43,020 bases of DNA, from sequence record PQ863254.1, one strand, 5' to 3'. Positions 2,571 through 24,778 of this stretch are shown one piece after another; within the stretch, counting starts at the first letter, position 1, and the number at the start of each line of letters is the position of its first letter. The translations under genes and the position numbers were made by a program. This DNA comes from Escherichia phage Ptacy1537. A model generated the notes under the pieces. It worked only from the letters and a program-made list of their open reading frames with translations, did no database searches and was not told where the DNA came from.

Positions 2571-3149
2571 ATGGGTATCAAAACTCGCGTAGGCTACTGC
2601 TCTGTAGCCGTCGTCCTGGCCCTGGTCAGTACCAACCACCCAGGGGAGATTCGAACCTCTAAGGAGGGCCTGGAGCTCCTCTCTGGTTATGAGGACTGCC
2701 GCACACAGGCATACCTGGACATCGTAGGAATCCCTACGTGCGGTATTGGCAGCACCTCCGGTGTCCGTATGGGCACTACCTGGACAGAGGCACAGGTGGC
2801 AGCTGCGTTCGTTAAGGACGTACAGGCGGCAGAGAAGTGCGTCCTCGTGTACTTTAACGGATACGCCATGCCGCAACCGGTGTTCGACTCTGTGACCTCT
2901 CTGGTGTTCAACACCGGATGCTGGGGTGCACGCTGGAACAACAAGCTGAACCGCCCGACTGGCATTGCTCAGTACGCTAAGGCGGAGGACTGGCAGAATG
3001 TGTGTTACAGATTGGGTGACTTCATCTACGCTGGCGGGAAGGTCTCTAATGGCCTAAAGAACCGTCGAGCTAAGGAGCAGGCTCACTGTATAAAGTGGCA
3101 AGTACCACAATCCTATGAGGGTTCCAGATGGACTCCAAATCCCCGTTGA
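2571..3149 (+). CDS. SAR endolysin (T4/P1 lysozyme-like muramidase, GH24)
   Basis: N-terminus is a weakly hydrophobic G/A/S-rich stretch (VGYCSVAVVLALVST) followed by EGLELLSGYEDCRTQAYLDIVGIPTCGIG, matching the catalytic E-D-T region of P1 Lyz / P21 R type signal-arrest-release endolysins. Confidence 0.75.
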   Translation: MGIKTRVGYCSVAVVLALVSTNHPGEIRTSKEGLELLSGYEDCRTQAYLDIVGIPTCGIGSTSGVRMGTTWTEAQVAAAFVKDVQAAEKCVLVYFNGYAMPQPVFDSVTSLVFNTGCWGARWNNKLNRPTGIAQYAKAEDWQNVCYRLGDFIYAGGKVSNGLKNRRAKEQAHCIKWQVPQSYEGSRWTPNPR

Positions 3150-3511
3150 TTAAACTGGCCGTAGTCGGCGCTGTATTGGTCGCTATGGTTATCCCGTCAT
3201 TAGTCGGGTATCACTACTACGGTAAGGTGGCAGTGCTCAAGCAGAGCGTTAAAGACCTCACCGACGACCTCGTCCATACCCAGGATACACTGGAGGCCAC
3301 CCTTGAGGGTGAGCAGCGTGCTAACCTGGCTTTATCCGAGCTTCGCAAGAAGAAGGGCTTAACCGATGCTGAACTTCAAAGTGCAAAATCCGAGCTGGAG
3401 CGTATTCACCTTCGCAACCCAGGCAACAATTGTCCTGTATTGCCTGCTGTCGCTGACAGGCTGCGGGCAGCAAACGACCAAGTACGTAAGAGTGGCTCCC
3501 TACGTCCCTGA
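3128..3511 (+). CDS. Rz-like inner-membrane spanin (i-spanin)
   Basis: 127 aa. N-terminal transmembrane segment (LIKLAVVGAVLVAMVIPSLVGY) followed by a charged coiled-coil region. Overlaps the endolysin stop. Confidence 0.6.
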   Translation: MDSKSPLIKLAVVGAVLVAMVIPSLVGYHYYGKVAVLKQSVKDLTDDLVHTQDTLEATLEGEQRANLALSELRKKKGLTDAELQSAKSELERIHLRNPGNNCPVLPAVADRLRAANDQVRKSGSLRP

Positions 3512-3662
3512 GAGCCTCTATGACCCGTGCACTCCACCAGCCTTACCTGAGGGTGTACTTGACCAGTTAATCATTGAGCAGCACGTCCTGGACCTCTATG
3601 GGACCATCTCAGGCTGCAATGATGACAAGGCTGAAATCAAGAAGCTACTCAGCGGTAAATAG
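3366..3662 (+). CDS. Rz1-like outer-membrane lipoprotein spanin (o-spanin), overlapping Rz in the +1 frame
   Basis: ORF starts inside the Rz gene in another frame and runs past its stop. Hydrophobic signal ends in lipobox LSLTGC; the mature part is Pro-rich (PYVPESLYDPCTPPALPEG). Confidence 0.5.
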   Translation: MLNFKVQNPSWSVFTFATQATIVLYCLLSLTGCGQQTTKYVRVAPYVPESLYDPCTPPALPEGVLDQLIIEQHVLDLYGTISGCNDDKAEIKKLLSGK

Positions 3663-4927
3663 TTGCCCGTTACAGTGCACTCCTCTTCCCGACTGGTGAG
3701 TGTACTGTTGCGGCCCAATTATGGCATAAAATTGTATGACCGGAGCGACCCTCGCGACACCCCTCGCTTCCCCCATAGGCCCTCCGCTTTGCACCATCGT
3801 GGAGCATTGGGCCGCCTCCGGGCACCTGGGCCTGCACTGGCAGGGCCATCATGGGCACCTATCGTGTGAGCTCCTGTAACTCCCTGTGCGACACTGTAGG
3901 CCATCACCGCTACCTACGTATCACCGTCTGGCTAATCGCCAGCCGTAGGGCCGCATAGGGCCATCTATCAGCTACTGGTTATCATCACTACTGCCTTATC
4001 GTTTATCAGAGTCGGACAAGGTAGACTCAAGGGTTATCATAGTCGGTCTGTTTAGCAGAGTGAGTACCATCACTCAGAGATTATAGTGTAGCTGAGTCCT
4101 TACTATAGCCGGGGAGTGAACCAGTGTCAACCCTATCTTATGACTATCTCACTACTCATTGTGTCGGGAGTGTCCTATTGTGTTAGACACGCGCTTAGCG
4201 TGGCTGTGCCCTTCTCTGTGCTCTTCCTATCGTGTGACAAGGGTAAGCCCTATCTCATACCTATCGTGCACTCACATTGCTTTATAGCGGCTCTTATTGT
4301 GTGTACAGGGGCGGGCTATCTGTATCCCTGTTTGCCAGCTCATCACACTGTTAACACATACCGTCTAACCATAGGGATAACCTGAGTCATACCCTACCAG
4401 TGACCTATCATCACACCTATCAAGCTATACACTGTATCCATAGTCTAATCGCCTATGGTAAGCACATAGTGATTCTACCGTTGAATATAAACATATCACA
4501 GATAGTGAGTACCTATCTGTCCACTACTAGCTCCACTGTCTAATCGCCAGTGGCTAACGTCCTATTCGTAGTCCTCCGCTACGCTCCGTACATACTCACT
4601 TCTGATACAGATAGAGAGAATTGTAACATACGTTACTACCTACCTATCCCTACCTGTAAGGCCCATTGCTTCGTTCTGTGCTCATAGAGTATGACGAATC
4701 AAACAGCACAGAGCCTGCACTCACAGTGCCTTAAATATAATCCTATTGAATACATACACTTAGCAATTAATTCGAATTTATTTGCAAATAACGCTTGCGC
4801 TTTTAGTCGGCTATACCCTATCATTCAATCACACCGCAGCAATCAGGCGGCAAGCAGTAAGAAGTACCGCTCTTTAACAATATGGTCATAGTATAGTGTG
4901 TCCTCTCAGGAGTATAGGGGATGATAC
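3663..4927. other. Large non-coding region, probable physical genome-end / terminal region in a circularly opened assembly
   Basis: No credible ORF (only short, overlapping, hydrophobic or low-complexity ORFs). Visibly lower GC, many CCTATC-type short repeats and three CTAATCGCC hairpins. Lies between the lysis cassette and the early promoter, where T7-like genomes have their ends. Confidence 0.5.
3928..4553 (+). repeat. Three hairpins sharing a CTAATCGCC core with different complementary stems
   Basis: 3928-3942 CTGGC-TAATC-GCCAG; 4438-4458 CCATAG-TCTAATCGC-CTATGG; 4533-4553 CCACTG-TCTAATCGC-CAGTGG. Stems are perfect inverted repeats that differ in sequence while the loop core is kept. Confidence 0.6.
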
Positions 4928-5299
4928 ATGACACTAAGCAAAGTACAACAAGCCGCGAACAAACAGGCCCAACGGTTAGCCAAACAGGCAGCCCGACAGG
5001 CCCAGAGTACCACAGAGCGTGCCCGTGCTGTGGCCTTGTGCAAAGCTGGCTCCTCAAAGGCTGGCAAGGCGGAGGCCCGCAGGATGGAGCTTGGAAAGCT
5101 GGCGTATAGTAAGACGGTCGGCGGTATGAATTATGCGGTGGATGCACGCAAGCAGCGCAAGCAGGATAAGCCCGCCGCCGCGAAGTACACTAAGCAAACA
5201 GACTTTGGTACACGTACCGCTACCTACGGTAGCAAGACAGATGCAACGGTTAACAGTTACCGCCGGGCTAAATCAGGCGATAACCTGCCACGTAAATAG
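4928..5299 (+). CDS. Hypothetical basic low-complexity protein (doubtful gene)
   Basis: 123-aa K/R/A/Q-rich ORF upstream of the early promoter. Weak RBS. Could be spurious. Confidence 0.3.
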   Translation: MTLSKVQQAANKQAQRLAKQAARQAQSTTERARAVALCKAGSSKAGKAEARRMELGKLAYSKTVGGMNYAVDARKQRKQDKPAAAKYTKQTDFGTRTATYGSKTDATVNSYRRAKSGDNLPRK

Positions 5300-5312: not shown

Positions 5313-5341
5313 TTGACATTAACGAGGATGCACCATACTAT
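5313..5341 (+). promoter_or_regulatory. Candidate host sigma70-type early promoter
   Basis: TTGACA (5313-5318), 17-nt spacer, TACTAT (5336-5341). Sits upstream of the early gene block on the coding strand. Confidence 0.45.
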
Positions 5342-5868
5342 GACCATACAGACAGCGGAGACCGACACGGCAAACAACGTTAGGTGAGTCTCCAATGTTT
5401 GGGCCTTGCACTCGCAAGCGCTTTTGTGAAAGAGACTTTGATGTACACATTGTGGAAGTACCCAGCACAGAGGAAACTCCGGTGATGGGAAGTGGAAGGT
5501 GCTTAAGTGCGATTGCCACGAGGAACCGCGATGGGGAAGCGTAGTATAGGGACGATAACCCTTTAAAGATATCAGGCCGGGTGAGATGGTAGGTCAGTTA
5601 TAAAATCCATCGATAATAGTGTTTGGCGAGCATTCCCTCCACCGAACGGGAGAAATCGCATCCAGCGTCACTGAGCGGGACAAGTCTCAAACGTATTGGA
5701 TTAACATCTGCTCCTGAGTAGGACGGGTAACGCGGTTAGCGCATGGTGACACTGTGAAGTGGTTCGATGCAATGCTTGACGCCTACCGACGCGAAAGGGA
5801 GCGGGTTAACATATGAGTATTCAATGGTGAGTATTCATACCTTTAACCAAACGATGAGGATTTACAAA

Positions 5869-6429
5869 ATGGCTACTACCAAAACCGCTAAAGCTACCAA
5901 AACCACTTCTGATTTCGTCAAGCTGGCTATGATTCCGGCTGATTTGGATAAGGCGATTGACCGTGTGTGTGTCGCTTCCAAGACGCTGCAATCTGACATC
6001 CACGATGTGGCCGTGGCTATCATGGTTCACACCTACAACCACAACGATTTCAGCAAGGCACAGACCCTTGTCGATGGCCTGGGTGAGGGTGTGCGCCGTG
6101 GTGCTCTGGTTGAGTGGTTCCAGGCCGCAGGTCTGAAGGTAAACGCTGAGGCTGGCGCTTTCTCTGGCTTCAACAAGGCCAAGATGGAAGATAAGTGGGA
6201 TAAGGTTAAATCCACGCCGTGGTATACCATGAAGCCGGAGCGCCCGTTTGCTGGCTTTGACCTGATGGCTGAGCTTGAGCGCCTGCTGTCTAAGGCTGAG
6301 AAGGCGACTAAGAAGAACGCCGACACGCCGGAGGACCAACGTGCTGAGGGTTACACTTTTGTGTGCGATGCCGACAAGCTGGCCGCCCTGCGTGCGATGA
6401 TTCACCCGGCAACGCAGACTGTTAACTAA
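5869..6429 (+). CDS. Early hypothetical protein
   Basis: ATG at 5869 with GAGGA 8 nt upstream (chosen over the 5767 start in the ORF track). 186 aa, no recognised domain. Confidence 0.6.
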   Translation: MATTKTAKATKTTSDFVKLAMIPADLDKAIDRVCVASKTLQSDIHDVAVAIMVHTYNHNDFSKAQTLVDGLGEGVRRGALVEWFQAAGLKVNAEAGAFSGFNKAKMEDKWDKVKSTPWYTMKPERPFAGFDLMAELERLLSKAEKATKKNADTPEDQRAEGYTFVCDADKLAALRAMIHPATQTVN

Positions 6430-6490
6430 GTGCTATCCGCAAGCCTGCTCAATGAGTGGGCTTGATGACTATCACTGAGGAGTTATCACG

Positions 6491-6883
6491 ATGAGCAAAA
6501 CAAAGATTCTTACCTTCCTGCGGGAGTGGTTACAGTATTCCGACGCCTGCATGAAGGCACACAAGGCGGGCGAGGAGAAGCCGCACTCGCAGACGTTCAC
6601 GCCGTATGATGGGTTGTGTGGCAACCTCGACCGCTGGGCGCGTGCTTACGCCCGCCGGGAGCAGCTTAACTTTGATGCGGAGCGCCAATTTAACCGGGGC
6701 TTATGTACGGCGCTGAAAGACCTGTTCCGGGCCGATGGCCTGTGTACCTGTTGGACGTTCGGAGAGCGTAGCTTTAAGATGCGCTTTGACCGGGAGTCTA
6801 ACGCACGGTGCCCTAACCGCCGCCGCTGGGTGAAGAATACTATCGCACAGCTTGAGAAGGAGCTATCCGATGGCAATCACTAA
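6491..6883 (+). CDS. Early hypothetical protein, paralog family member A
   Basis: 130 aa. Shares FL(R/T)xWL...F(T/R)PY(D/T)GLC with the 7166..7489 product. Confidence 0.6.
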   Translation: MSKTKILTFLREWLQYSDACMKAHKAGEEKPHSQTFTPYDGLCGNLDRWARAYARREQLNFDAERQFNRGLCTALKDLFRADGLCTCWTFGERSFKMRFDRESNARCPNRRRWVKNTIAQLEKELSDGNH

Positions 6884-7169
6884 GATATCCTTTCTGGCCC
6901 GCTACCACACGCGGGAAATCAGGGAAGTAATACTATCCCCGTGCTGGCCTACTCTTGAGAAAGAGGTCACGGTACAGCACGATAAAGAGGCCGTGTTCGT
7001 ACTCGGGCCGGGGCCATGTGGCAAGACGGTTGACAAGCTGGATGTACGGTATCAGGAGCACGATATTGTTATCACTCAGTACCACGATGATGGTACACTT
7101 AAAGAATTTGCATACCAGCGCGAAGATGTGCTGGGTCGTATAACTATTGAGCGGAGTGTATTTCAATGA
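6870..7169 (+). CDS. Early hypothetical protein
   Basis: ATG at 6870 preceded by GAGAAGGAG. 99 aa. No recognised domain. Confidence 0.5.
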   Translation: MAITKISFLARYHTREIREVILSPCWPTLEKEVTVQHDKEAVFVLGPGPCGKTVDKLDVRYQEHDIVITQYHDDGTLKEFAYQREDVLGRITIERSVFQ

Positions 7170-7489
7170 CCAAAGAGATGAGAGAGTTTCTCACAGCGTG
7201 GCTTGATTGGGCCACGAGCGGCGACGTTAAAGACCATAAATACGGCTGTATATTCCGCCCGTATACCGGGCTGTGTGCTGCTGCGGATTACTGGACAGTA
7301 GACGATGGCCCGGCGCACTACGAACTCATTAGCGAGTTGGGTGATATGCTGGAAGCCGGTGGGTTGGCCACGGACTATCCTTTTGACACCCCGCGTAGCT
7401 ATGACGCTGCCGCAGAGGCAGGCACACAGCACCTTAACCCGGCCCGCCTGGCGTGGGTACGTGCTAAGCTGGAGGTGTCAGATGAGTGA
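7166..7489 (+). CDS. Early hypothetical protein, paralog family member B
   Basis: 107 aa. EFLTAWLDWA...FRPYTGLCAA parallels TFLREWLQYS...FTPYDGLCGN of 6491..6883. ATGA-type overlap with flanking genes. Confidence 0.6.
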   Translation: MTKEMREFLTAWLDWATSGDVKDHKYGCIFRPYTGLCAAADYWTVDDGPAHYELISELGDMLEAGGLATDYPFDTPRSYDAAAEAGTQHLNPARLAWVRAKLEVSDE

Positions 7490-7898
7490 TATCTTTGTTG
7501 GTTTAAAAGTGCGGGCCCGGAAAGATAGCTTGGGCACTGCGATTGAGAACGAGGGGCGCACTGCGGTGGTGTGTACTGTGGATGCAAATAAGGTATTCTA
7601 CAAATACAAGCACCGCCCGACAGTGTACCAGATTACCACTAACCGCTTTTGGGACCGCTTTGAAAGTGTCGAAGATGATAAACCTACTGGCGTCTCCGCG
7701 ACTGCTGGTCATTGTGCTGGTAATGGTGGTCTGCGCGGGCACAGTGTTGGAGATGTATTCCCTGTGGTCGTTTATCAGCGCGGGACTCCTGGCTTTATAA
7801 CGCACTGGCTACGCCTGCCGGATGGCCGGGACATCGGCCCGTACCATAGCTACGATGATGTACACCGTGCCGCAGCATGGCACAAAGATAACCTGTGA
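7482..7898 (+). CDS. Early hypothetical protein
   Basis: ATG at 7482 overlapping the upstream stop; 138 aa (MSDIFVGLKV...). The longer 7305 start in the ORF track would overlap the upstream gene. Confidence 0.5.
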   Translation: MSDIFVGLKVRARKDSLGTAIENEGRTAVVCTVDANKVFYKYKHRPTVYQITTNRFWDRFESVEDDKPTGVSATAGHCAGNGGLRGHSVGDVFPVVVYQRGTPGFITHWLRLPDGRDIGPYHSYDDVHRAAAWHKDNL

Positions 7899-7908
7899 GG
7901 ATATTACT

Positions 7909-8139
7909 ATGACTGTTAAGATTAAAGAACGTACCCCGGCTAAGACACTGGTTCATTTCCGCAACATAAAGCCGGGCCAGTTCTTCGTGTATTCGTCAGA
8001 ACACAGCGAGCGCAATCTGCAATTACGTACCGACACCGGTGCTGTTATCGTAGAGACCGGGGTACATGACGAGGAGGACATCTACTCTAAAGATGCGGTG
8101 TTTGAAGTTATCCGCGATGTAGATATCTTCTGGGGCTAG
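7909..8139 (+). CDS. Early hypothetical protein
   Basis: ATG at 7909 with GAGGA upstream. 76 aa. Confidence 0.5.
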   Translation: MTVKIKERTPAKTLVHFRNIKPGQFFVYSSEHSERNLQLRTDTGAVIVETGVHDEEDIYSKDAVFEVIRDVDIFWG

Positions 8140-8199
8140 TGGTTTGCCGAAGGGCCTGCACTCGCGGGCCTTTTATCAATATCACTGTGGAGTTATGAG

Positions 8200-8412
8200 A
8201 TGAAACAAGATGTGTGCTTTAACGCCGCATTGAAGGCACAGCTGCGCCGTATTGCTGGCGACTGTGACGAGGAAATGTGGTGGAATATGTCCGAGCTTGA
8301 GGACCGTGCGATTCAGGCCCGTGAGAAACTTCGCCGGATGTACTCCGAACGTGCTGCGGCCGTCGGGATGTCCCTTAATGGCTACTGCGCCCGCTTTGGA
8401 GTGAAGCTATGA
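8200..8412 (+). CDS. Early hypothetical protein
   Basis: 70-aa ORF with GGAG upstream. Stop overlaps the next start. Confidence 0.5.
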   Translation: MKQDVCFNAALKAQLRRIAGDCDEEMWWNMSELEDRAIQAREKLRRMYSERAAAVGMSLNGYCARFGVKL

Positions 8413-8708
8413 ACCAGAACGCTGTAACTGTGGCGATGATGCTGTGGGGATACGTGGAGGCTGAGGTGCACTTCGTAGACAGCCACACCCCAGATGACCC
8501 TACAACATATGAGCTGGCCGGTATGGGTGCTGTCGAGGCCTGTGAAGCGGTGCGGCTGCTGGCCATCGAGCTGTATGACCGCTGGGATAAGCCCGACACT
8601 ATGGAGTGGGTGGACTTCCTGTACGTAACCCTGCCGGATGTGGCGCACATCATTGTGCAAGACTGCATCTTAGGCACGTTCCCAACTCTCGAGGCATTTG
8701 ACATATGA
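8409..8708 (+). CDS. Early hypothetical protein
   Basis: 99-aa acidic ORF, overlap-coupled to its neighbours. Confidence 0.5.
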   Translation: MNQNAVTVAMMLWGYVEAEVHFVDSHTPDDPTTYELAGMGAVEACEAVRLLAIELYDRWDKPDTMEWVDFLYVTLPDVAHIIVQDCILGTFPTLEAFDI

Positions 8709-9106
8709 AACTGAATAAAATGATGGTGCTGGTGTCGGCCGAGTGTTCCGACCTGTGCGACTCCGAGAACGCAGACCGCACCGCAGAGCTGCGACACTGG
8801 ATTGGCACCTCTTACCGCCACCGCTTCAGCTCAGCCCTCGGCAAGTACAACGGCAACACTGAGAACTCCTTCTTGATTCAGGTCGATGACTTCCGGGACA
8901 TCGGCTATATCTCAGACAAGGCCGCTGAGATGAATCAGGAATCCATTCTGATACTGGATGCCCGCGACAAGGCATTCCTGTATTACCCGGCGTCAAAATC
9001 ACTTGAGCCTATTGGGTTGATGCTGAGCTGCCCTATGTCGGCATTCAATGCTGCGCACCACACCGCGTACACAATCATCGGCGATACCGCCTATTATACT
9101 ATCTGA
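8705..9106 (+). CDS. Early hypothetical protein
   Basis: 133-aa ORF, overlap-coupled start. Confidence 0.5.
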   Translation: MKLNKMMVLVSAECSDLCDSENADRTAELRHWIGTSYRHRFSSALGKYNGNTENSFLIQVDDFRDIGYISDKAAEMNQESILILDARDKAFLYYPASKSLEPIGLMLSCPMSAFNAAHHTAYTIIGDTAYYTI

Positions 9107-9116
9107 GGATAACACT

Positions 9117-9584
9117 ATGACACGCAAAACTGTATCTGAACGTCGCATGGCTGGCGCTAACAAGCAAATCGCAGAGCTGACCCAGGCGCTGCACGAGTCC
9201 CGTGAGTACGGTGAGGTTCTGGCCGCCGGTATCAAGGATAAGGATGGCTTAATCCGCCACCTCAAGACAGCCAATAACAGTCTGCGCGTTAAGCTGGCTG
9301 AGACGGACTCTGCCTTGAACGCATCTCAGGCGGACCTTCATGAGGTGACGGCAGCGGCCTCTGTAACAGCTGAGAACCGGGACTTCTATAAAGGGGCACA
9401 CGCCGTTGCAACTCGACAGCTGCGGGACATGACTAATCTGGTAGACCTGGAATACGACAGGGCAGACTCTTACCTTGCGAAGCTTAACTCAGCTGAGAAG
9501 GATGTCCTGTCATGGAAGCGTGGATTCTTTGCGCTGGTGGTTATCACAGTAATTGCACAGGTGGTGAACTATGTCTTTGGTTAA
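9117..9584 (+). CDS. Hypothetical coiled-coil protein with C-terminal transmembrane anchor
   Basis: ATG at 9117 with GAGGA upstream. 155 aa. Long helical charged region, then hydrophobic C-terminus FFALVVITVIAQVVNYVFG. Confidence 0.5.
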   Translation: MTRKTVSERRMAGANKQIAELTQALHESREYGEVLAAGIKDKDGLIRHLKTANNSLRVKLAETDSALNASQADLHEVTAAASVTAENRDFYKGAHAVATRQLRDMTNLVDLEYDRADSYLAKLNSAEKDVLSWKRGFFALVVITVIAQVVNYVFG

Positions 9585-10083
9585 CAGCCGCACCCCGAAG
9601 GCGCACCCGGATGAACAACATCAGGGTACGTACAACCTCAAGCCCGTTTCTGTGTTTATGTATGAGGAGGGGAGTCCACGGGAGACCTTCAATGCCGTCG
9701 AGGTCGGCGAACTTCTGCGTTATTACGGTGTTGATAGCGTCATGGACCTTCCTCCTCAGGAGCCTGCACTCGCAGACGCCCCAACGCACGGATTTGGTGA
9801 GCCCCGGCGCTTTGCTTCGGGTTCGCCGGGATTGCAGAACCTTCCGAAGGAGGGTGCGCGTCGGATGTCTGCCCCGGAGGCGTTCGCTGCGCCGTATGGC
9901 GTTTCCGTATCGCTGGAGCATCCATACGGGGAGGTGCGTAAGGTGGTTAAGAAGCGCGAGACCTCACAGACCGGGGTAGTGGCGTTTGATGCCACACTTC
10001 TGTTACTCAAAGGCCTGAGCACCGAGCAGGCTGACTACGTGTTCCAACTTCTGGCTGAACAGCTGGGCTACGATATCCAATAA
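9571..10083 (+). CDS. Hypothetical protein
   Basis: 170-aa ORF with coding-like composition. No recognised domain. Confidence 0.5.
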   Translation: MSLVNSRTPKAHPDEQHQGTYNLKPVSVFMYEEGSPRETFNAVEVGELLRYYGVDSVMDLPPQEPALADAPTHGFGEPRRFASGSPGLQNLPKEGARRMSAPEAFAAPYGVSVSLEHPYGEVRKVVKKRETSQTGVVAFDATLLLLKGLSTEQADYVFQLLAEQLGYDIQ

Positions 10084-10094
10084 GGAAACCAACG

Positions 10095-10352
10095 ATGAAC
10101 CTGATTACCATTCTGCACAAACTGTTAGACCGCGCATACCGTAAAGCCGCCGCCCGTGCTACTGCCCGCGCTGTTAAAGCGGAGAAGCACCGCGAAGCGT
10201 TAGCCGACGAGGCCCTGGAGCTGGCGGCTCAGCTGGCTGAGGTGCAGCACGAGCACCGCAACACCTTTTATGAAATTCAGGCCCAGCATAATGAAGCTGA
10301 GCGTATCGAAGCCCAGCGCCAGAAAGCCGCTGACCTGTTCGGAGGTATCTAA
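10095..10352 (+). CDS. Hypothetical coiled-coil protein
   Basis: 85 aa, A/E/R/Q-rich helical sequence. RBS-like GGAAAC upstream. Confidence 0.45.
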   Translation: MNLITILHKLLDRAYRKAAARATARAVKAEKHREALADEALELAAQLAEVQHEHRNTFYEIQAQHNEAERIEAQRQKAADLFGGI

Positions 10353-10353
10353 G

Positions 10354-10830
10354 ATGACCAAACGCACCATTAAATTCGACATCTCCGTATCCGGCAGCGC
10401 GGTGGTTGACATCGACCACCTGCTTAACCTGCTGCAAAAGTGCAGCAAGTTCCCGTGGGCCCAGCACTTGCTGGCCGTATATGCCAGCGGTGGCGAGGAT
10501 GAACTGGCGGCGACCTATATCAGGCAGGCGTACGCAGGCGGCTTAAATAACCTGCTGCGTGCCTGGGCTACAGATAGCGTAACGCAGGAGGAGCACGGCG
10601 GCAAGGCCAAGTTCGCCCCGGCCCGCGTCACCGTCGAGGTCAAGCAGAAGCGTGTACTGTATGCCAGCGATGTTGCCATCGGAGGCCGCTACAAGTTCGA
10701 CAGCCCGGACTTCGACGGCTACTACGAGGGCGCGTTCACACGTAACGGTGAGCGCTCTTCTGTCACGGCCGAAGGTGGGCATGTGCCGTGGGAAGGGCAC
10801 GAGACCTGGCCGGTTGTGCTGGTAGTGTAA
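10354..10830 (+). CDS. Hypothetical protein
   Basis: ATG at 10354 with GGAGG 8 nt upstream. 158 aa. Confidence 0.5.
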   Translation: MTKRTIKFDISVSGSAVVDIDHLLNLLQKCSKFPWAQHLLAVYASGGEDELAATYIRQAYAGGLNNLLRAWATDSVTQEEHGGKAKFAPARVTVEVKQKRVLYASDVAIGGRYKFDSPDFDGYYEGAFTRNGERSSVTAEGGHVPWEGHETWPVVLVV

Positions 10831-10881
10831 TAGCTATAGCCTGGGCGCTGCCTGGGCTATGTCGATTACACAGGAGGAGTT

Positions 10882-11562
10882 ATGCAGAAATTAGAGGACC
10901 GTGAGTTCCTTACGATTGCCAAAGGCCTCATGATTGGTGAGGTTACTAAGGTAATCCATAAGGGATGTGGTGCCCGCCCGGCGCTGCACATTGCTAATGA
11001 AGCGGACAGATGGTGGGCGTACTGCCACAAGTGCCGCCGCAGTGGAAGTGTGACTAAGACGCTTCAACGGATTAAAGTGAAAGCGCCAGATAAGACCGGG
11101 TGGGTGCCTGCTGTGTTGAAGCCCGCGCAGGACTTCATCAACGAGCTGGTAGTGAATGACCGTCTGCCGGAGTGGGTATGGGAACACATCACAATCTTGA
11201 AGTACGCACCGGATACGAAGCGCATATACCTTCCAGATTGCGCCGGACACCTCTGGGGATACGATGCCACAGGTGCAGCCACTGCGCGGCTCTACAGCCC
11301 GTACAAGCGGCCTGGTGCGGTGTGGGTGCCTGCTGTGTATAACGGCACCGTGTTCATAACGTCCAGTATAACCCGATATCTGAACCATGTTCGTGAAGGC
11401 GCGCGTGTGTACCTGGTCGGGGCCAATGCGGAGTACGCCCATTGTGTATGGTATGTGGCGGAGCACCCAGGCTTCGACTACGTAATCGACCGCAAAGCAA
11501 ACTTCCATCCGAAGTTTATTCGCAACCTCAAACAATTCGGAGCTAAGTTAAATGGCAGTTGA
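10882..11562 (+). CDS. Putative DNA primase (zinc-ribbon containing)
   Basis: 226 aa. Cys/His cluster (HKGCGARP...YCHKCRRSG). Sits immediately upstream of the helicase, as in phages with separate primase and helicase genes. Domain call is tentative. Confidence 0.45.
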   Translation: MQKLEDREFLTIAKGLMIGEVTKVIHKGCGARPALHIANEADRWWAYCHKCRRSGSVTKTLQRIKVKAPDKTGWVPAVLKPAQDFINELVVNDRLPEWVWEHITILKYAPDTKRIYLPDCAGHLWGYDATGAATARLYSPYKRPGAVWVPAVYNGTVFITSSITRYLNHVREGARVYLVGANAEYAHCVWYVAEHPGFDYVIDRKANFHPKFIRNLKQFGAKLNGS

Positions 11563-22282: not shown

Positions 22283-24778
22283 GTGGCTACACTCGCAGAC
22301 CAATTGGCGTTTGAAATCAAGCACCGCGACCTCGGCCGTGAACGTATGGCGGCTATTATCCAGTCAGCTGGGGAGCAGGGTAGATTGACAGACACGCCGT
22401 TGGGTACGGGTGTGCTCCGTCGATACCTGCAACGCCTCTCTGAAACCATCTCACTGGACATCACTGAGGAGCTGGGCGTACCGGGCCGCTCTAAGCAGTA
22501 CGCTGTATTGCTGAAGAACATGGACCCGGACGTACTGGCCCTGGTGTCTCTGGATACCGTCATCGAACATCTTGAGATGAGCGATGAGGAGGAGGATTCA
22601 GTACCCCTGGGTAGTATGGCATCTGCGATTGGCCGGGCTATTCACAGTGAGATTATCTTGACGGAGTTCAAGGACATATCGCCGGACTTATACGAGGTAC
22701 TGACTAACAGCCTCAAGTCGCGAATGAGCAAGAACCTCCGGCACAAGATGGCAGTGTACAAGATGCAGGCCGCTGAGCAAGGTCTGGTTCTGCCAGAGTG
22801 GACGACGGCACAGCGTGCACAGGTCGGCTCATACCTCATCGGTCTGCTGATTAACATGGGTGTGCTGGAACAGTTCACACGTTGGATTAAGCGCAAGTCC
22901 GTATACTGTGTCTCGCTGGGTACGGATGTGGTCGAATTGATGGAGGCCATCAGGGAGCGCGTAATTGAGCGCTCAGGCTTCGCAGCACCCTGCCTAATAC
23001 CACCGGAACCCTGGACCGGAGAAGAGGGCGTAGGGGGCTTCCACGGAGCTCTGAAGCTACGTGCCCCTCGCTTCTTCAAAGGAACATCCGAGCAGCTGGA
23101 GATAATGCAGACGGAAGGGTGTGACCTGACCACCACCCTGGCCGCGTTGAATTTCCAGCAGAGGGTAGCATGGAAAGTCAACCCATTCGTGCATAAGCTG
23201 GCCCTGTTAATGCTCCAGTACCGCTACGAGTTGAAGAAGTCAATCACTTCGGTGGCGTACTACCCGAAGCCTGACAGGCCCGAGTGGCTCGACCTCTGCG
23301 ACGATATGTCCAAGATATCGCCGAGGCAGAAGGAAGAGTTCGACAAGTGGAAGCTGGCCACCCGAGACTGGCACACAGAGAACAAGAAACGTGCCCGCAT
23401 TGAGGTGCGTATGCGCTTGGCCCTGGCAGCTGCGCGGGACTTCGGTGAGCTTGAGCGCTTCTACTTCGTATGCCAGGCAGATGACCGGGGCCGGGAATAC
23501 TTCTGCTCCGGGCCGCTTAACCCGCAGGGAAGTGACCTACAGAAAGCCCTGCTGCACTCCGCAGTAGGTGGGCCTGTAGACACTCCAGAGGCTGTGTTCT
23601 GGTTTAAGCTAAACATCGCCACGAAGTATGGCATTGACAAACTGGCTCCGGCCGACTGTATAAAATGGGTGGATGATAACCATGACAACATTATCTCGGC
23701 GGCGGCTGACCCTCTTAATCGCGAAGCATTTGACTGGTGGGCACAGGCCGATAAGCCGCTACAGTTTATCGCGGTGTGCGACGAGTATCGCCGTTGGGTT
23801 GAAGACCCTGTGGGTTTTGAGGCTCGAATCGCAGTCTCTATGGACGGGACGTGTAACGGCCTTCAGAACTATTCCGCGCTACTTAGGGACCCCATTGGTG
23901 GACGCGCTACGAATCTCATTAGCGCCGAATCTGGAATACCTAATGACATATACGGTGACGTGGCCCTCGCCGCTTTTAAGAGGCTCGAAGCTGACGTGGG
24001 CGGAATTTACAGACCCGGCTGGCTACTACACGGATTCAACCGAAAGCTGACGAAGCCGTCGGTCATGACCCAGGTGTACGGCTCGACGTTCGGTACGTGT
24101 CGCAAGTCCATTGTGTCGTACTGTGTAGAGCGGGCGCTGTTTGAGGATGAGCAGTATGAGCACGCTGATTACGCTGCACGTCTGGTCTGGGAAGGGATTG
24201 GAGATGTTGTTGTTGCAGCACGGGAATGTATGGAGTGGCTACGCAAGTGTGCCGGACTCATTATGGCTGAGGGTGCTGAGTTCATATCCTGGCCTGCTCC
24301 TTCGGGATTCAGGGTAGTCCAGGTGTACCGCAAGCCAAAGCTGGTGCAGGTAAGGGCGCACATCGGCAAGAGTGTGTCATATGCAATCCAGGTGGCGGTG
24401 GATGACACCGACGACCAGGACAAGATTCGACACCGAAATGCCTTCCCACCCAATTTCATCCACAGCGTCGACGCAAGCCACTTAGCAATGGTGGCTGTGG
24501 GTATGGGTTCCCTACATGAACAGATGCGCTTAGAGGGCCGCCTATCGAAGATTTGGGCTAATGAAAGTGTGTTCCTGCACTTCATCCATGACGACTTCGG
24601 TGCATTGCCACATATGGCGGCTGACTTGGCACGCATAATTCGTGAGAAGTTTGTTGAAATGCACGAGAATTATGACATTGAGTCTATCAGAAAGGACTAC
24701 TGGTTCCTCCCAGAATCTCCGAAGAAAGGCTCATTAGATATTCGTTGTGTACTCGACAGTATTAACTTCTTCCGTTGA
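22283..24778 (+). CDS. Single-subunit DNA-dependent RNA polymerase (T7 RNAP-like)
   Basis: 831 aa. GTG start with AAGGAG 6 nt upstream. C-terminal region has the T7 RNAP-type motif IHDDFG and the palm-domain FIHSVDASH. Confidence 0.9.
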   Translation: MATLADQLAFEIKHRDLGRERMAAIIQSAGEQGRLTDTPLGTGVLRRYLQRLSETISLDITEELGVPGRSKQYAVLLKNMDPDVLALVSLDTVIEHLEMSDEEEDSVPLGSMASAIGRAIHSEIILTEFKDISPDLYEVLTNSLKSRMSKNLRHKMAVYKMQAAEQGLVLPEWTTAQRAQVGSYLIGLLINMGVLEQFTRWIKRKSVYCVSLGTDVVELMEAIRERVIERSGFAAPCLIPPEPWTGEEGVGGFHGALKLRAPRFFKGTSEQLEIMQTEGCDLTTTLAALNFQQRVAWKVNPFVHKLALLMLQYRYELKKSITSVAYYPKPDRPEWLDLCDDMSKISPRQKEEFDKWKLATRDWHTENKKRARIEVRMRLALAAARDFGELERFYFVCQADDRGREYFCSGPLNPQGSDLQKALLHSAVGGPVDTPEAVFWFKLNIATKYGIDKLAPADCIKWVDDNHDNIISAAADPLNREAFDWWAQADKPLQFIAVCDEYRRWVEDPVGFEARIAVSMDGTCNGLQNYSALLRDPIGGRATNLISAESGIPNDIYGDVALAAFKRLEADVGGIYRPGWLLHGFNRKLTKPSVMTQVYGSTFGTCRKSIVSYCVERALFEDEQYEHADYAARLVWEGIGDVVVAARECMEWLRKCAGLIMAEGAEFISWPAPSGFRVVQVYRKPKLVQVRAHIGKSVSYAIQVAVDDTDDQDKIRHRNAFPPNFIHSVDASHLAMVAVGMGSLHEQMRLEGRLSKIWANESVFLHFIHDDFGALPHMAADLARIIREKFVEMHENYDIESIRKDYWFLPESPKKGSLDIRCVLDSINFFR

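Follow-up and report, generated by a model that had tools for sequence, protein, structure and literature searches.

Positions 5869-10830 of Escherichia phage Ptacy1537 (PQ863254.1), whose whole 43,020-bp sequence is called the window below, carry a compact block of 13 small genes, numbered here g1 to g13 (Table 1). We interpret this block, with a probability of about 0.8, as the early, host-takeover region of a podophage of the subfamily Melnykvirinae, transcribed by the host RNA polymerase (RNAP). As early regions go it is ordinary, and homologs of it have already been deposited in GenBank. It encodes one enzyme of a known anti-restriction type (a sequence-based prediction), one possible antagonist of the nucleoid protein H-NS, two proteins from named families and one from a very large family; several ORFans occupy the variable slots. 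After DNA entry, host sigma-70 RNAP would transcribe the block, and the g9 product would cleave S-adenosylmethionine (SAM) into methylthioadenosine and homoserine lactone. The g10 product, probably acting with its constant neighbour g11, would tether or sequester some host or phage factor at the inner membrane, the N-terminal domain of g13 may act like the H-NS binder gp5.5 of T7, and the variable slots would carry strain-specific accessory genes, plausibly with anti-defence roles.

The window appears to be a complete, circularly permuted podophage genome. Its closest DNA matches were the Klebsiella phages 6937, GP-4, K59PH2, Y10, KYP and Kpn1-P3, at 83-86% identity and with 44-74% of positions 5700-10900 covered. 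These best-matching phages belong to the Autographiviridae and, where classified, to the Melnykvirinae, and similarity at the sequence level assigns the window phage to the same subfamily, within the phiKMV supergroup. In the Klebsiella relatives the early block is mostly annotated as "hypothetical".

Downstream of the block, the primase gene is followed by a DnaB-like helicase gene, and the single-subunit RNAP gene (22283-24778) lies beyond the DNA metabolism genes, in a phiKMV-like order. The early region of phiKMV and LUZ19 (gp1-gp11), which is transcribed by host RNAP and whose RNAP gene also follows the DNA metabolism genes, has the same overall layout. However, tblastn revealed no block product other than g1 similar to the LUZ19 early proteins, and LUZ19 lacks the SAM lyase present in the window phage. 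The role shared with the T7 class I early genes (Ocr gp0.3, kinase gp0.7 and gp2) would be host takeover, with transcription by host RNAP from the entering genome end, whereas no homologs of these three T7 proteins were detected here and the RNAP gene lies outside the block. An earlier note on this stretch had already remarked that nothing in it resembles Ocr or a protein kinase, in agreement with the absence of any such Pfam hit at E <= 0.1 among the 13 products.

The distribution of promoters carries the transcriptional part of this interpretation. In a window-wide scan, + strand matches to the phage promoter consensus TGATTCGTNATACTCTAAGAACAC were confined to 24870, 28187 and 39377; on the coding strand, no phage-RNAP promoter was found within or upstream of the block, and such promoters occurred only downstream of the phage RNAP gene. 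The block and the replication genes that follow it are therefore expected to be read by host polymerase. A putative sigma-70-like promoter precedes g1, and the depositors of GP-4 marked a "host promoter" at the corresponding site, immediately after their homolog of the 4928-5299 gene; the placement of the block between an early promoter and the primase gene, as described in the earlier note, is thereby upheld. A near-consensus phage-RNAP promoter with two mismatches was also observed on the minus strand (4678-4701), in the non-coding left end, directed toward the genome end and away from all genes.

Between the sigma-70-like promoter and g1 runs an untranslated leader (5342-5868). Every Melnykvirinae genome examined has a gap of 550-650 nt at this position, but without sequence conservation: close relatives match just the final ~90 nt of the leader, and a 40-nt island (about 5619-5658) is 90% identical to Serratia phage Kaonashi. 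We considered a structured RNA in the leader and rejected it, given the lack of any Rfam hit, a fold z-score of -1.4 and the confinement of conservation to the last 90 nt. A weak terminator-like hairpin (5401-5423) lies ~60 nt past the promoter.

The block consists of two translationally coupled segments, g1-g6 and g7-g13, split by an intrinsic terminator. None of 200 shuffled sequences folded as well as this terminator, and the GP-4 record has a rho-independent terminator in the corresponding position. Two copies of a 17-mer, TATCACTGNGGAGTTAT, carry the ribosome-binding sites of g2 and g7, each just 3' of a stable hairpin at a cassette boundary; they could represent recombination joints or a common translation-initiation element. 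We also observed eight copies of TGCACTCRC, all on the + strand (4267, 4716, 5407, 8157, 9765, 11770, 27602 and 34075; variants at 6574, 15395 and 22280), against 1.2 expected, a count that none of 100 shuffles reached. This motif often folds into a small YGC-ACTC-GCR hairpin, one instance being the loop of the 8149-8174 terminator, and its confinement to one strand points to an element acting at the RNA level, in processing or termination.

The dense, overlap-coupled array of about 13 small open reading frames (ORFs) reported in the earlier note was recovered in full. On the + strand the block contains exactly 13 ORFs, all preceded at 5-13 nt by a Shine-Dalgarno-like motif; the boundaries of the two frames highlighted in that note, 9117-9584 and 10095-10352, were reproduced. 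Coding density reaches 97% (153 of 4962 nt are non-coding), and neighbouring genes overlap at 6 of 12 junctions, the overlaps measuring 4, 8 or 14 nt. Comparison with five related phages yielded ratios of nonsynonymous to synonymous substitution (dN/dS) of 0.01-0.67 across all 13 genes, mostly below 0.4, with substantial synonymous divergence (dS). With every ratio below 0.7 and dS substantial, the ORFs are genuine protein-coding genes, all under purifying selection. Six GenBank genomes carry annotations of these same frames, which were also called on a 42.8-kb metagenome contig (L018).

Comparison among relatives revealed two classes of genes. A backbone of g1, g9, a g10-type gene and g11, present in every genus compared, is conserved across the subfamily, and g3, g7 and g12 are often present. 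Variable cassettes, which the earlier note had suggested looking for by comparative genomics, were indeed found: g2-g6, g8 and the C-terminal domain of g13 are gained or lost among close relatives. Kpn1-P3 has g2-g5 deleted, with the last 29 codons of g5 remaining, and KYP lacks g4. Gene g6 is absent from GP-4 and the L018 contig and shows 41-46% identity in K59PH2 and Kpn1-P3, g8 is absent from 6937 and GP-4, and an additional 88-codon gene found between g1 and g2 in relatives is missing from the window.

The statement in the earlier note that the block has no recognisable enzymatic motifs did not withstand domain analysis. The g9 product matched the Pfam family S-AdoMet_lyase (PF23780) with 87.5 bits (cut-off 28; E 9.8e-25), residues 8-132 of 133 aligning to profile positions 1-132 of 133, and its homolog on the L018 contig has the same precomputed Pfam hit. 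A profile of nine g9 homologs found a sole match in the PDB, the T3 SAMase (7OCK/8BB1; E 4.9e-4, 91 positions). Single-sequence searches with g9 gave nothing significant in the PDB and nothing with phmmer, and IMG/VR yielded no loci related to it. By tblastn, g9 homologs occupy the same genomic place in Melnykvirinae of Pectobacterium, Yersinia, Serratia and Aeromonas, and thus in all sampled genera.

Six residues, G46, Y48, E53, S55, Q78 and E79, are invariant among the nine g9 homologs, down to 30% identity, and define the motifs G-x-Y, E-x-S and Q-E-S. In Svi3-3, SAM is contacted by Gly56, Tyr58, Glu69, Ser71, Gln104 and Glu105, and the E69Q substitution almost abolishes activity (PMC7877911). 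We infer that the g9 motifs correspond to these SAM-binding residues; in a hidden Markov model (HMM) alignment with T3 SAMase, E53 falls opposite the second Glu of the T3 TEEK motif and Q78 opposite the T3 Q. Because of the Pfam match, the single PDB relative and the invariant motifs, g9 is classified as a predicted SAM lyase of the T3 gp0.3 type.

T3 SAMase is described as countering type I restriction-modification and BREX (PMC7877911; 10.1101/2023.02.27.530186). By analogy, g9 should disable SAM-dependent type I restriction and BREX: depletion of SAM would starve type I and type III restriction as well as BREX, as with the T3 enzyme. With the T3 SAMase/Svi3-3 family, g9 shares the full-length model match and, with T3 SAMase, an N-terminal VLVSA...LCD region; both are early genes of Autographiviridae phages. 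The relationship is nevertheless distant, the loop between the Tyr and Glu motifs being shorter in g9, and T3 SAMase inhibits MetK by co-polymerisation. The expectation of a novel anti-restriction function in the block is thus borne out in part: a candidate is present, as predicted from g9, and it is not novel, since its family is already known.

The product of g10 had been described as a coiled coil followed by a C-terminal transmembrane helix, and both features were recovered. The protein contains no proline. Residues 8-130 (123 residues) show a strong 3.5-residue hydrophobic periodicity that none of 300 shuffles reached, and there is a 19-residue hydrophobic C-terminal segment (mean Kyte-Doolittle value 2.14 at residue 136), unique among the 13 proteins; the predicted transmembrane helix spans about 133-152. 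NCBIfam searches with 10 of the products returned no hits besides a spurious SMC coiled-coil match for g10. Alignment of 16 homologs revealed a conserved basic head (1-58; dN/dS 0.01-0.14), a hypervariable spacer with insertions and deletions (59-127; 0.23-0.74) and a nearly invariant anchor, SWKRGFFALVVITVIAQVVNYV (0-0.23). No positive selection on g10 was found, dN/dS never exceeding 1 with the spacer near saturation; the fast evolution of the spacer could reflect an arms race. With Lys and Arg residues on the N-terminal side of the helix and only about three residues beyond it, g10 should, under the positive-inside rule, be a tail-anchored inner-membrane protein whose coiled coil and basic head are cytoplasmic.

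Genes of g10-like architecture follow the SAM lyase gene in phi80-18 (after one small intervening ORF), Kaonashi, phiAS7 and MA13, where the ORF lacks an annotation. Each encodes a basic N-terminus, a coiled coil and a C-terminal transmembrane helix, and a recognisable g11 homolog comes next. The same combination of a coiled coil and a C-terminal transmembrane helix is found in LUZ19 gp11, whose gene immediately precedes the replication genes. Homology of g10 to the phi80-18 and Kaonashi analogs and to LUZ19 gp11 could not be demonstrated (hhalign probabilities 15%, 0.8% and 0.15%). Several early genes are missing from the GenBank annotation of MA13: at about 5587-5940 and 3796-4029 these include the g10-type ORF that directly follows the SAM lyase gene and an ORF weakly resembling g8.

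The g11 gene, conserved across the subfamily, lies immediately 3' of the g10-type gene. An alignment of eight homologs revealed an N-terminal motif, LV-x-x-x-T-x4-P-D/E-E/D-Q-x2-G-x-Y, and a C-terminal motif, LA-x-Q-L-G-Y-D-I-Q, separated by a variable Pro-rich middle. Together, g9, the g10-type gene and g11 form a conserved gene arrangement, whose order and translational coupling are kept in all sampled Melnykvirinae genera despite the divergence of the g10 sequence. That these three genes make up a single, undescribed functional module is a speculative proposal, which we consider doubtful.

An AlphaFold2 model of g13 (predicted local distance difference test score, pLDDT, 78) comprises a helical N-domain (1-99) and a beta-rich C-domain (100-158), with pLDDT just 60-74 for residues 1-20 and 61-100. 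Homologs consisting of the N-domain only occur in MA13 and in two metagenome clusters (P0081 and P0082), and the GP-4 homolog (6085-6558) contains an in-frame stop after about residue 123, beyond which the codons are still conserved; the stop has arisen either by recent nonsense mutation or through an error in sequencing. On account of the N-domain-only homologs and the GP-4 stop, the C-domain appears dispensable.

Several comparisons link the g13 N-domain to T7 gp5.5, a DUF2675 protein that binds H-NS and tRNA. The match to phrog_1452 reached E 0.0048 over 4-100 of 101 profile positions and was seen in 2 of 7 family members, and an 82%-identical homolog bears a "DUF2675" label in nr. Against six gp5.5 proteins, hhalign gave 53 aligned columns at E 4.4e-4, with the KFAPA of g13 on an invariant KFSPA; against T7 gp5.5 alone, its probability was 0.5-2%. 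Foldseek searches of BFVD retrieved the MmP1 "HNS binding protein" (TM 0.63, probability 0.97) and the Q19 "H-NS and tRNA binding protein" (TM 0.56, probability 0.63), the TM values being target-normalised and the E values 0.1-0.5; the PDB holds no gp5.5 structure. The two proteins share the N-domain length (about 99 residues), an N-terminal MTKR-x-x-K/V-F-D/E-hydrophobic motif, a C-terminal KF-A/S-PA motif and a location adjoining DNA replication genes. They differ in the extra 60-residue beta-rich C-domain of g13 and in position, T7 gp5.5 lying downstream of DNA polymerase and g13 upstream of the primase. We lean, with some reserve, toward a link between the g13 N-domain and gp5.5 and toward a similar action.

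Sequence comparison places g1 in the phiKMV/LUZ19 gp3 family, which is widespread and uncharacterised, so that g1 is not a variable cassette. It aligned with LUZ19 gp3 over 153 columns (hhalign probability 98.1%, E 8.7e-14) and with phrog_1448 at E 6.9e-49, and in many phiKMV-like genomes the family member lies about 2 kb from the left end. A word-indexed search had retrieved 30 clusters with a seemingly clade-restricted distribution; an exhaustive profile search returned 1902 representative clusters (50% identity), and tblastn found g1 homologs in 476 phage records (Pseudomonas, Acinetobacter, Aeromonas, Xanthomonas, Vibrio, Ralstonia and others). The protein has a disordered Lys/Thr/Ala-rich N-terminal tail followed by a helical domain with a beta-hairpin, and its predicted fold had no PDB match. 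The g1 family would represent a very large family of early proteins with no solved-structure analog and, presumably, with a conserved role. The literature searched gave no function for phiKMV/LUZ19 gp3, gp11 or the Melnykvirinae early genes, so comparison with LUZ19 gp3 and gp11 transfers none to g1 or g10.

Several observations weigh against parts of this interpretation. A single sigma-70-like site passed the promoter scan, which overall was no richer than shuffled sequence, and 9 of the 13 products have no assignable activity. The correspondence between g9 and Svi3-3 numbering was drawn from the motif pattern and the T3 SAMase alignment, with no direct alignment to Svi3-3; moreover, g9 is the ninth gene of the block and sits behind the terminator, unlike the first-entering T3 gp0.3, which makes a first-line protective role uncertain. 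The g10 analogs of other genera have no significant sequence similarity to g10, shared ancestry and function being inferred from position and architecture alone. As for g13, the hhalign probability of the gp5.5 link is only 34%, no Foldseek hit reached E <= 1e-3, and none of 25 members of the g13 family matched Pfam DUF2675 at E <= 1; taken singly, none of the matches to gp5.5 is significant.

The earlier note had pointed instead to a block without recognisable functions, chiefly a reservoir of novel anti-restriction, anti-CRISPR and host-shutoff proteins. The nine products to which Pfam, PHROGs, NCBIfam and the PDB assign no function are compatible with such a reservoir, as are the variability of g2-g6 and g8 among close relatives, the fast-evolving g10 spacer and the extreme acidity of g8, a property of DNA-mimic anti-restriction proteins. 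Nonetheless, g9 is a recognisable enzyme, by prediction, of a known anti-restriction family, and g1, g3, g7, g11 and g12 are conserved, strongly constrained family members, not fast-turnover cassettes. No resemblance to known anti-CRISPR proteins or Ocr was detected among the 13 products; of the acidic proteins, g8 matched nothing in Pfam, PHROGs, NCBIfam or the PDB and g4 nothing in Pfam, NCBIfam or the PDB, and acidity alone is insufficient evidence of a DNA mimic. We consider a reservoir of this kind improbable; for new anti-CRISPR or host-shutoff functions among the ORFs other than g9, the results speak neither in favour nor against. The view that the ORFs belong to no known family fails for g1, g3 and g7 and holds to the extent that functions are still unassigned for most; nor are the ORFs each homologous to characterised housekeeping phage proteins. 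A more radical doubt, that some ORFs are open by chance in a GC-rich genome, could draw on the 55% GC content of the window, its numerous long antisense ORFs and the lack of g6 and g8 in some relatives; it is hardly credible against the Shine-Dalgarno motif on every ORF, the tight head-to-tail array, the dN/dS values and the agreement of gene callers across six GenBank relatives and a metagenome contig.

Alternatives also exist for individual products of this early region. The g9 family is labelled "SAM-dependent methyltransferase" in phrog_2226 and in the records of K59PH2, Kpn1-P3, phi80-18 and phiAS7, which would imply protection of phage DNA by methylation. With 133 residues, however, g9 is too short for a Rossmann-fold methyltransferase and matches no methyltransferase family in Pfam, the curated match and the only PDB relative both point to SAM cleavage, and the GP-4 and Kaonashi records name the homolog SAM hydrolase. 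We therefore regard a methyltransferase as extremely improbable, and the label in PHROGs and several RefSeq records is very probably wrong for the g9 family, an inherited misnomer. In phi80-18 g09 and phiAS7 gp12, both SAM lyase homologs, the label is likewise likely wrong. For g10, the competing possibilities are an Rz-like i-spanin or a superinfection-exclusion protein in place of a cytoplasmic tether acting with g11. A weak PHROG hit to an Rz-like spanin (E 3.9e-4, residues 15-77) favours the former, yet it spans coiled-coil sequence only, and i-spanins are anchored through the N-terminus, carry their coiled coil in the periplasm and are encoded with an o-spanin in the lysis cassette. The g10 anchor is C-terminal with ~3 residues outside, its coiled coil is predicted to be cytoplasmic and its gene sits in the early block; the phage apparently has a separate spanin-type gene at about 3129-3663, beside the endolysin, a relative position at which Kpn1-P3 annotates an "Rz-like spanin". 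The i-spanin was rejected on topology and location. Many superinfection-exclusion proteins are small early inner-membrane proteins, and the rapid diversification of the g10 spacer would fit such a role. Taken together, the two possibilities appear unlikely, and we retain the tail-anchored tether as the preferred reading of g10.

Table 1. Positions and properties of the 13 genes of the early block and of associated signals and flanking genes.
Feature	Position	Strand	Description
Upstream gene	4928-5299		123-aa basic Ala/Lys/Gln-rich protein; phrog_9286, 6e-22
Sigma-70-like early promoter	5313-5341	+	TTGACA-17-TACTAT; 10/12 consensus matches; 527 nt upstream of g1
g1	5869-6429	+	186 aa; phiKMV/LUZ19 gp3 family (phrog_1448)
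Stable hairpin, no U-tract	6440-6464	+	between g1 and g2; -22.6 kcal/mol for 6425-6495, z = -2.4
17-mer TATCACTGAGGAGTTAT	6470-6486 (before g2), 8180-8196 (before g7)	+	2 copies versus 0.01 expected
g2	6491-6883	+	130 aa, basic, 6 Cys; phrog_2510, 6.6e-14
g3	6870-7169	+	99 aa; T3 gene 1.05 family (PF25755)
g4	7166-7489	+	107 aa, acidic (isoelectric point, pI, 4.5); phrog_2510
g5	7482-7898	+	138 aa; phrog_18383 matched by C-terminal half
g6	7909-8139	+	76 aa; variable small ORF
Intrinsic terminator hairpin and UUUU	8149-8174	+	between g6 and g7; -26.5 kcal/mol, z = -4.95
g7	8200-8412	+	70 aa; DUF7267 (PF23929)
g8	8409-8708	+	99 aa; ORFan, pI 4.05
g9	8705-9106	+	133 aa; predicted S-adenosylmethionine lyase, T3 gp0.3-type
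g10	9117-9584	+	155 aa; predicted coiled coil and C-terminal transmembrane helix
g11	9571-10083	+	170 aa; phrog_9577, 1.5e-16
g12	10095-10352	+	85 aa; phrog_5965
g13	10354-10830	+	158 aa; two domains (predicted)
Primase	10882-11562		phrog_8634, 2e-61; 3' flank of block

The remaining small genes comprise both named families and ORFans. BLASTP aligned g2 with g4 at 29% identity (E 9e-9), and by sequence the two are paralogs of the phrog_2510 family; the g4 homolog in MA13 is labelled "similar to N4 gp3". The g3 and g7 products passed the Pfam cut-offs for the T3 gene 1.05 family (88.4 bits, cut-off 27) and DUF7267 (54.6 bits, cut-off 27), matches that supply a name only, as both families are without known function; homologs of g3 occur in phi80-18 and Kaonashi. 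The most constrained gene of the block is g7, with dN/dS of 0.01-0.04 and an invariant C-terminus, Y-C-x-R-F-G-V-K-L. A superficially similar motif in g6 and LUZ19 gp7/gp9 was examined and dismissed, no relationship being detectable. Single-sequence PDB searches with the 12 products other than g9, concatenated, and profile searches of the PDB with g1, g7, g8 and g13 gave no significant match.

The g8 product contains 18 Asp/Glu against 3 Lys/Arg residues, shows dN/dS of 0.11-0.15 and is present in just three other phage records; no family in Pfam, PHROGs or NCBIfam matched it, and any role as a DNA mimic is a guess. Here g8 fills the slot between g7 and the SAM lyase; the same slot contains an unrelated 92-aa ORF in GP-4 and a 269-aa ORF in phi80-18 and is empty in 6937. 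For g12, which the earlier note had read as a coiled coil, periodicity tests gave no support (matched by 42 of 300 shuffles). The protein is probably helical, with no Pro or Gly over residues 1-82 and its two Gly only in the C-terminal GGI; dN/dS was 0.06-0.08 against four relatives, and weak homologs occur in MA13 and Kaonashi.

Two side observations concern annotation and genome layout. The Kaonashi record likely mislabels its homologs of g1 (3051-3581, "DNA-directed RNA polymerase"), g5 (4398-4823, "tail tubular protein") and g12 (6555-6806, "recombination endonuclease VII"). The actual first gene of the genome is that at 4928-5299, which precedes the 5313 promoter, falls outside the block and is kept in all relatives.

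Collectively, these findings distinguish a conserved backbone, in which g7 and g12 can be counted beside g1, g9, the g10 type and g11, from the fast-turnover slots of g2-g6, g8 and the g13 C-domain, a division that can guide the choice between strain-specific anti-defence candidates and core takeover genes. Assigning g9 to the SAM lyases corrects a label propagated through RefSeq and PHROGs, and the predicted evasion of SAM-dependent type I and type III restriction and of BREX in Klebsiella would be relevant to the choice of therapeutic phages. The best leads are g1, with its gp3-like family, and g10 with g11, which are widespread, constrained and uncharacterised in the annotations and literature examined; g1 and the g9-g10-g11 arrangement offer testable starting points. 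Should the three-gene module be real, it would give these podophages a common, as yet uncharacterised early function tethered to the membrane, such as anchoring or sequestering a host defence or replication component at the inner membrane.

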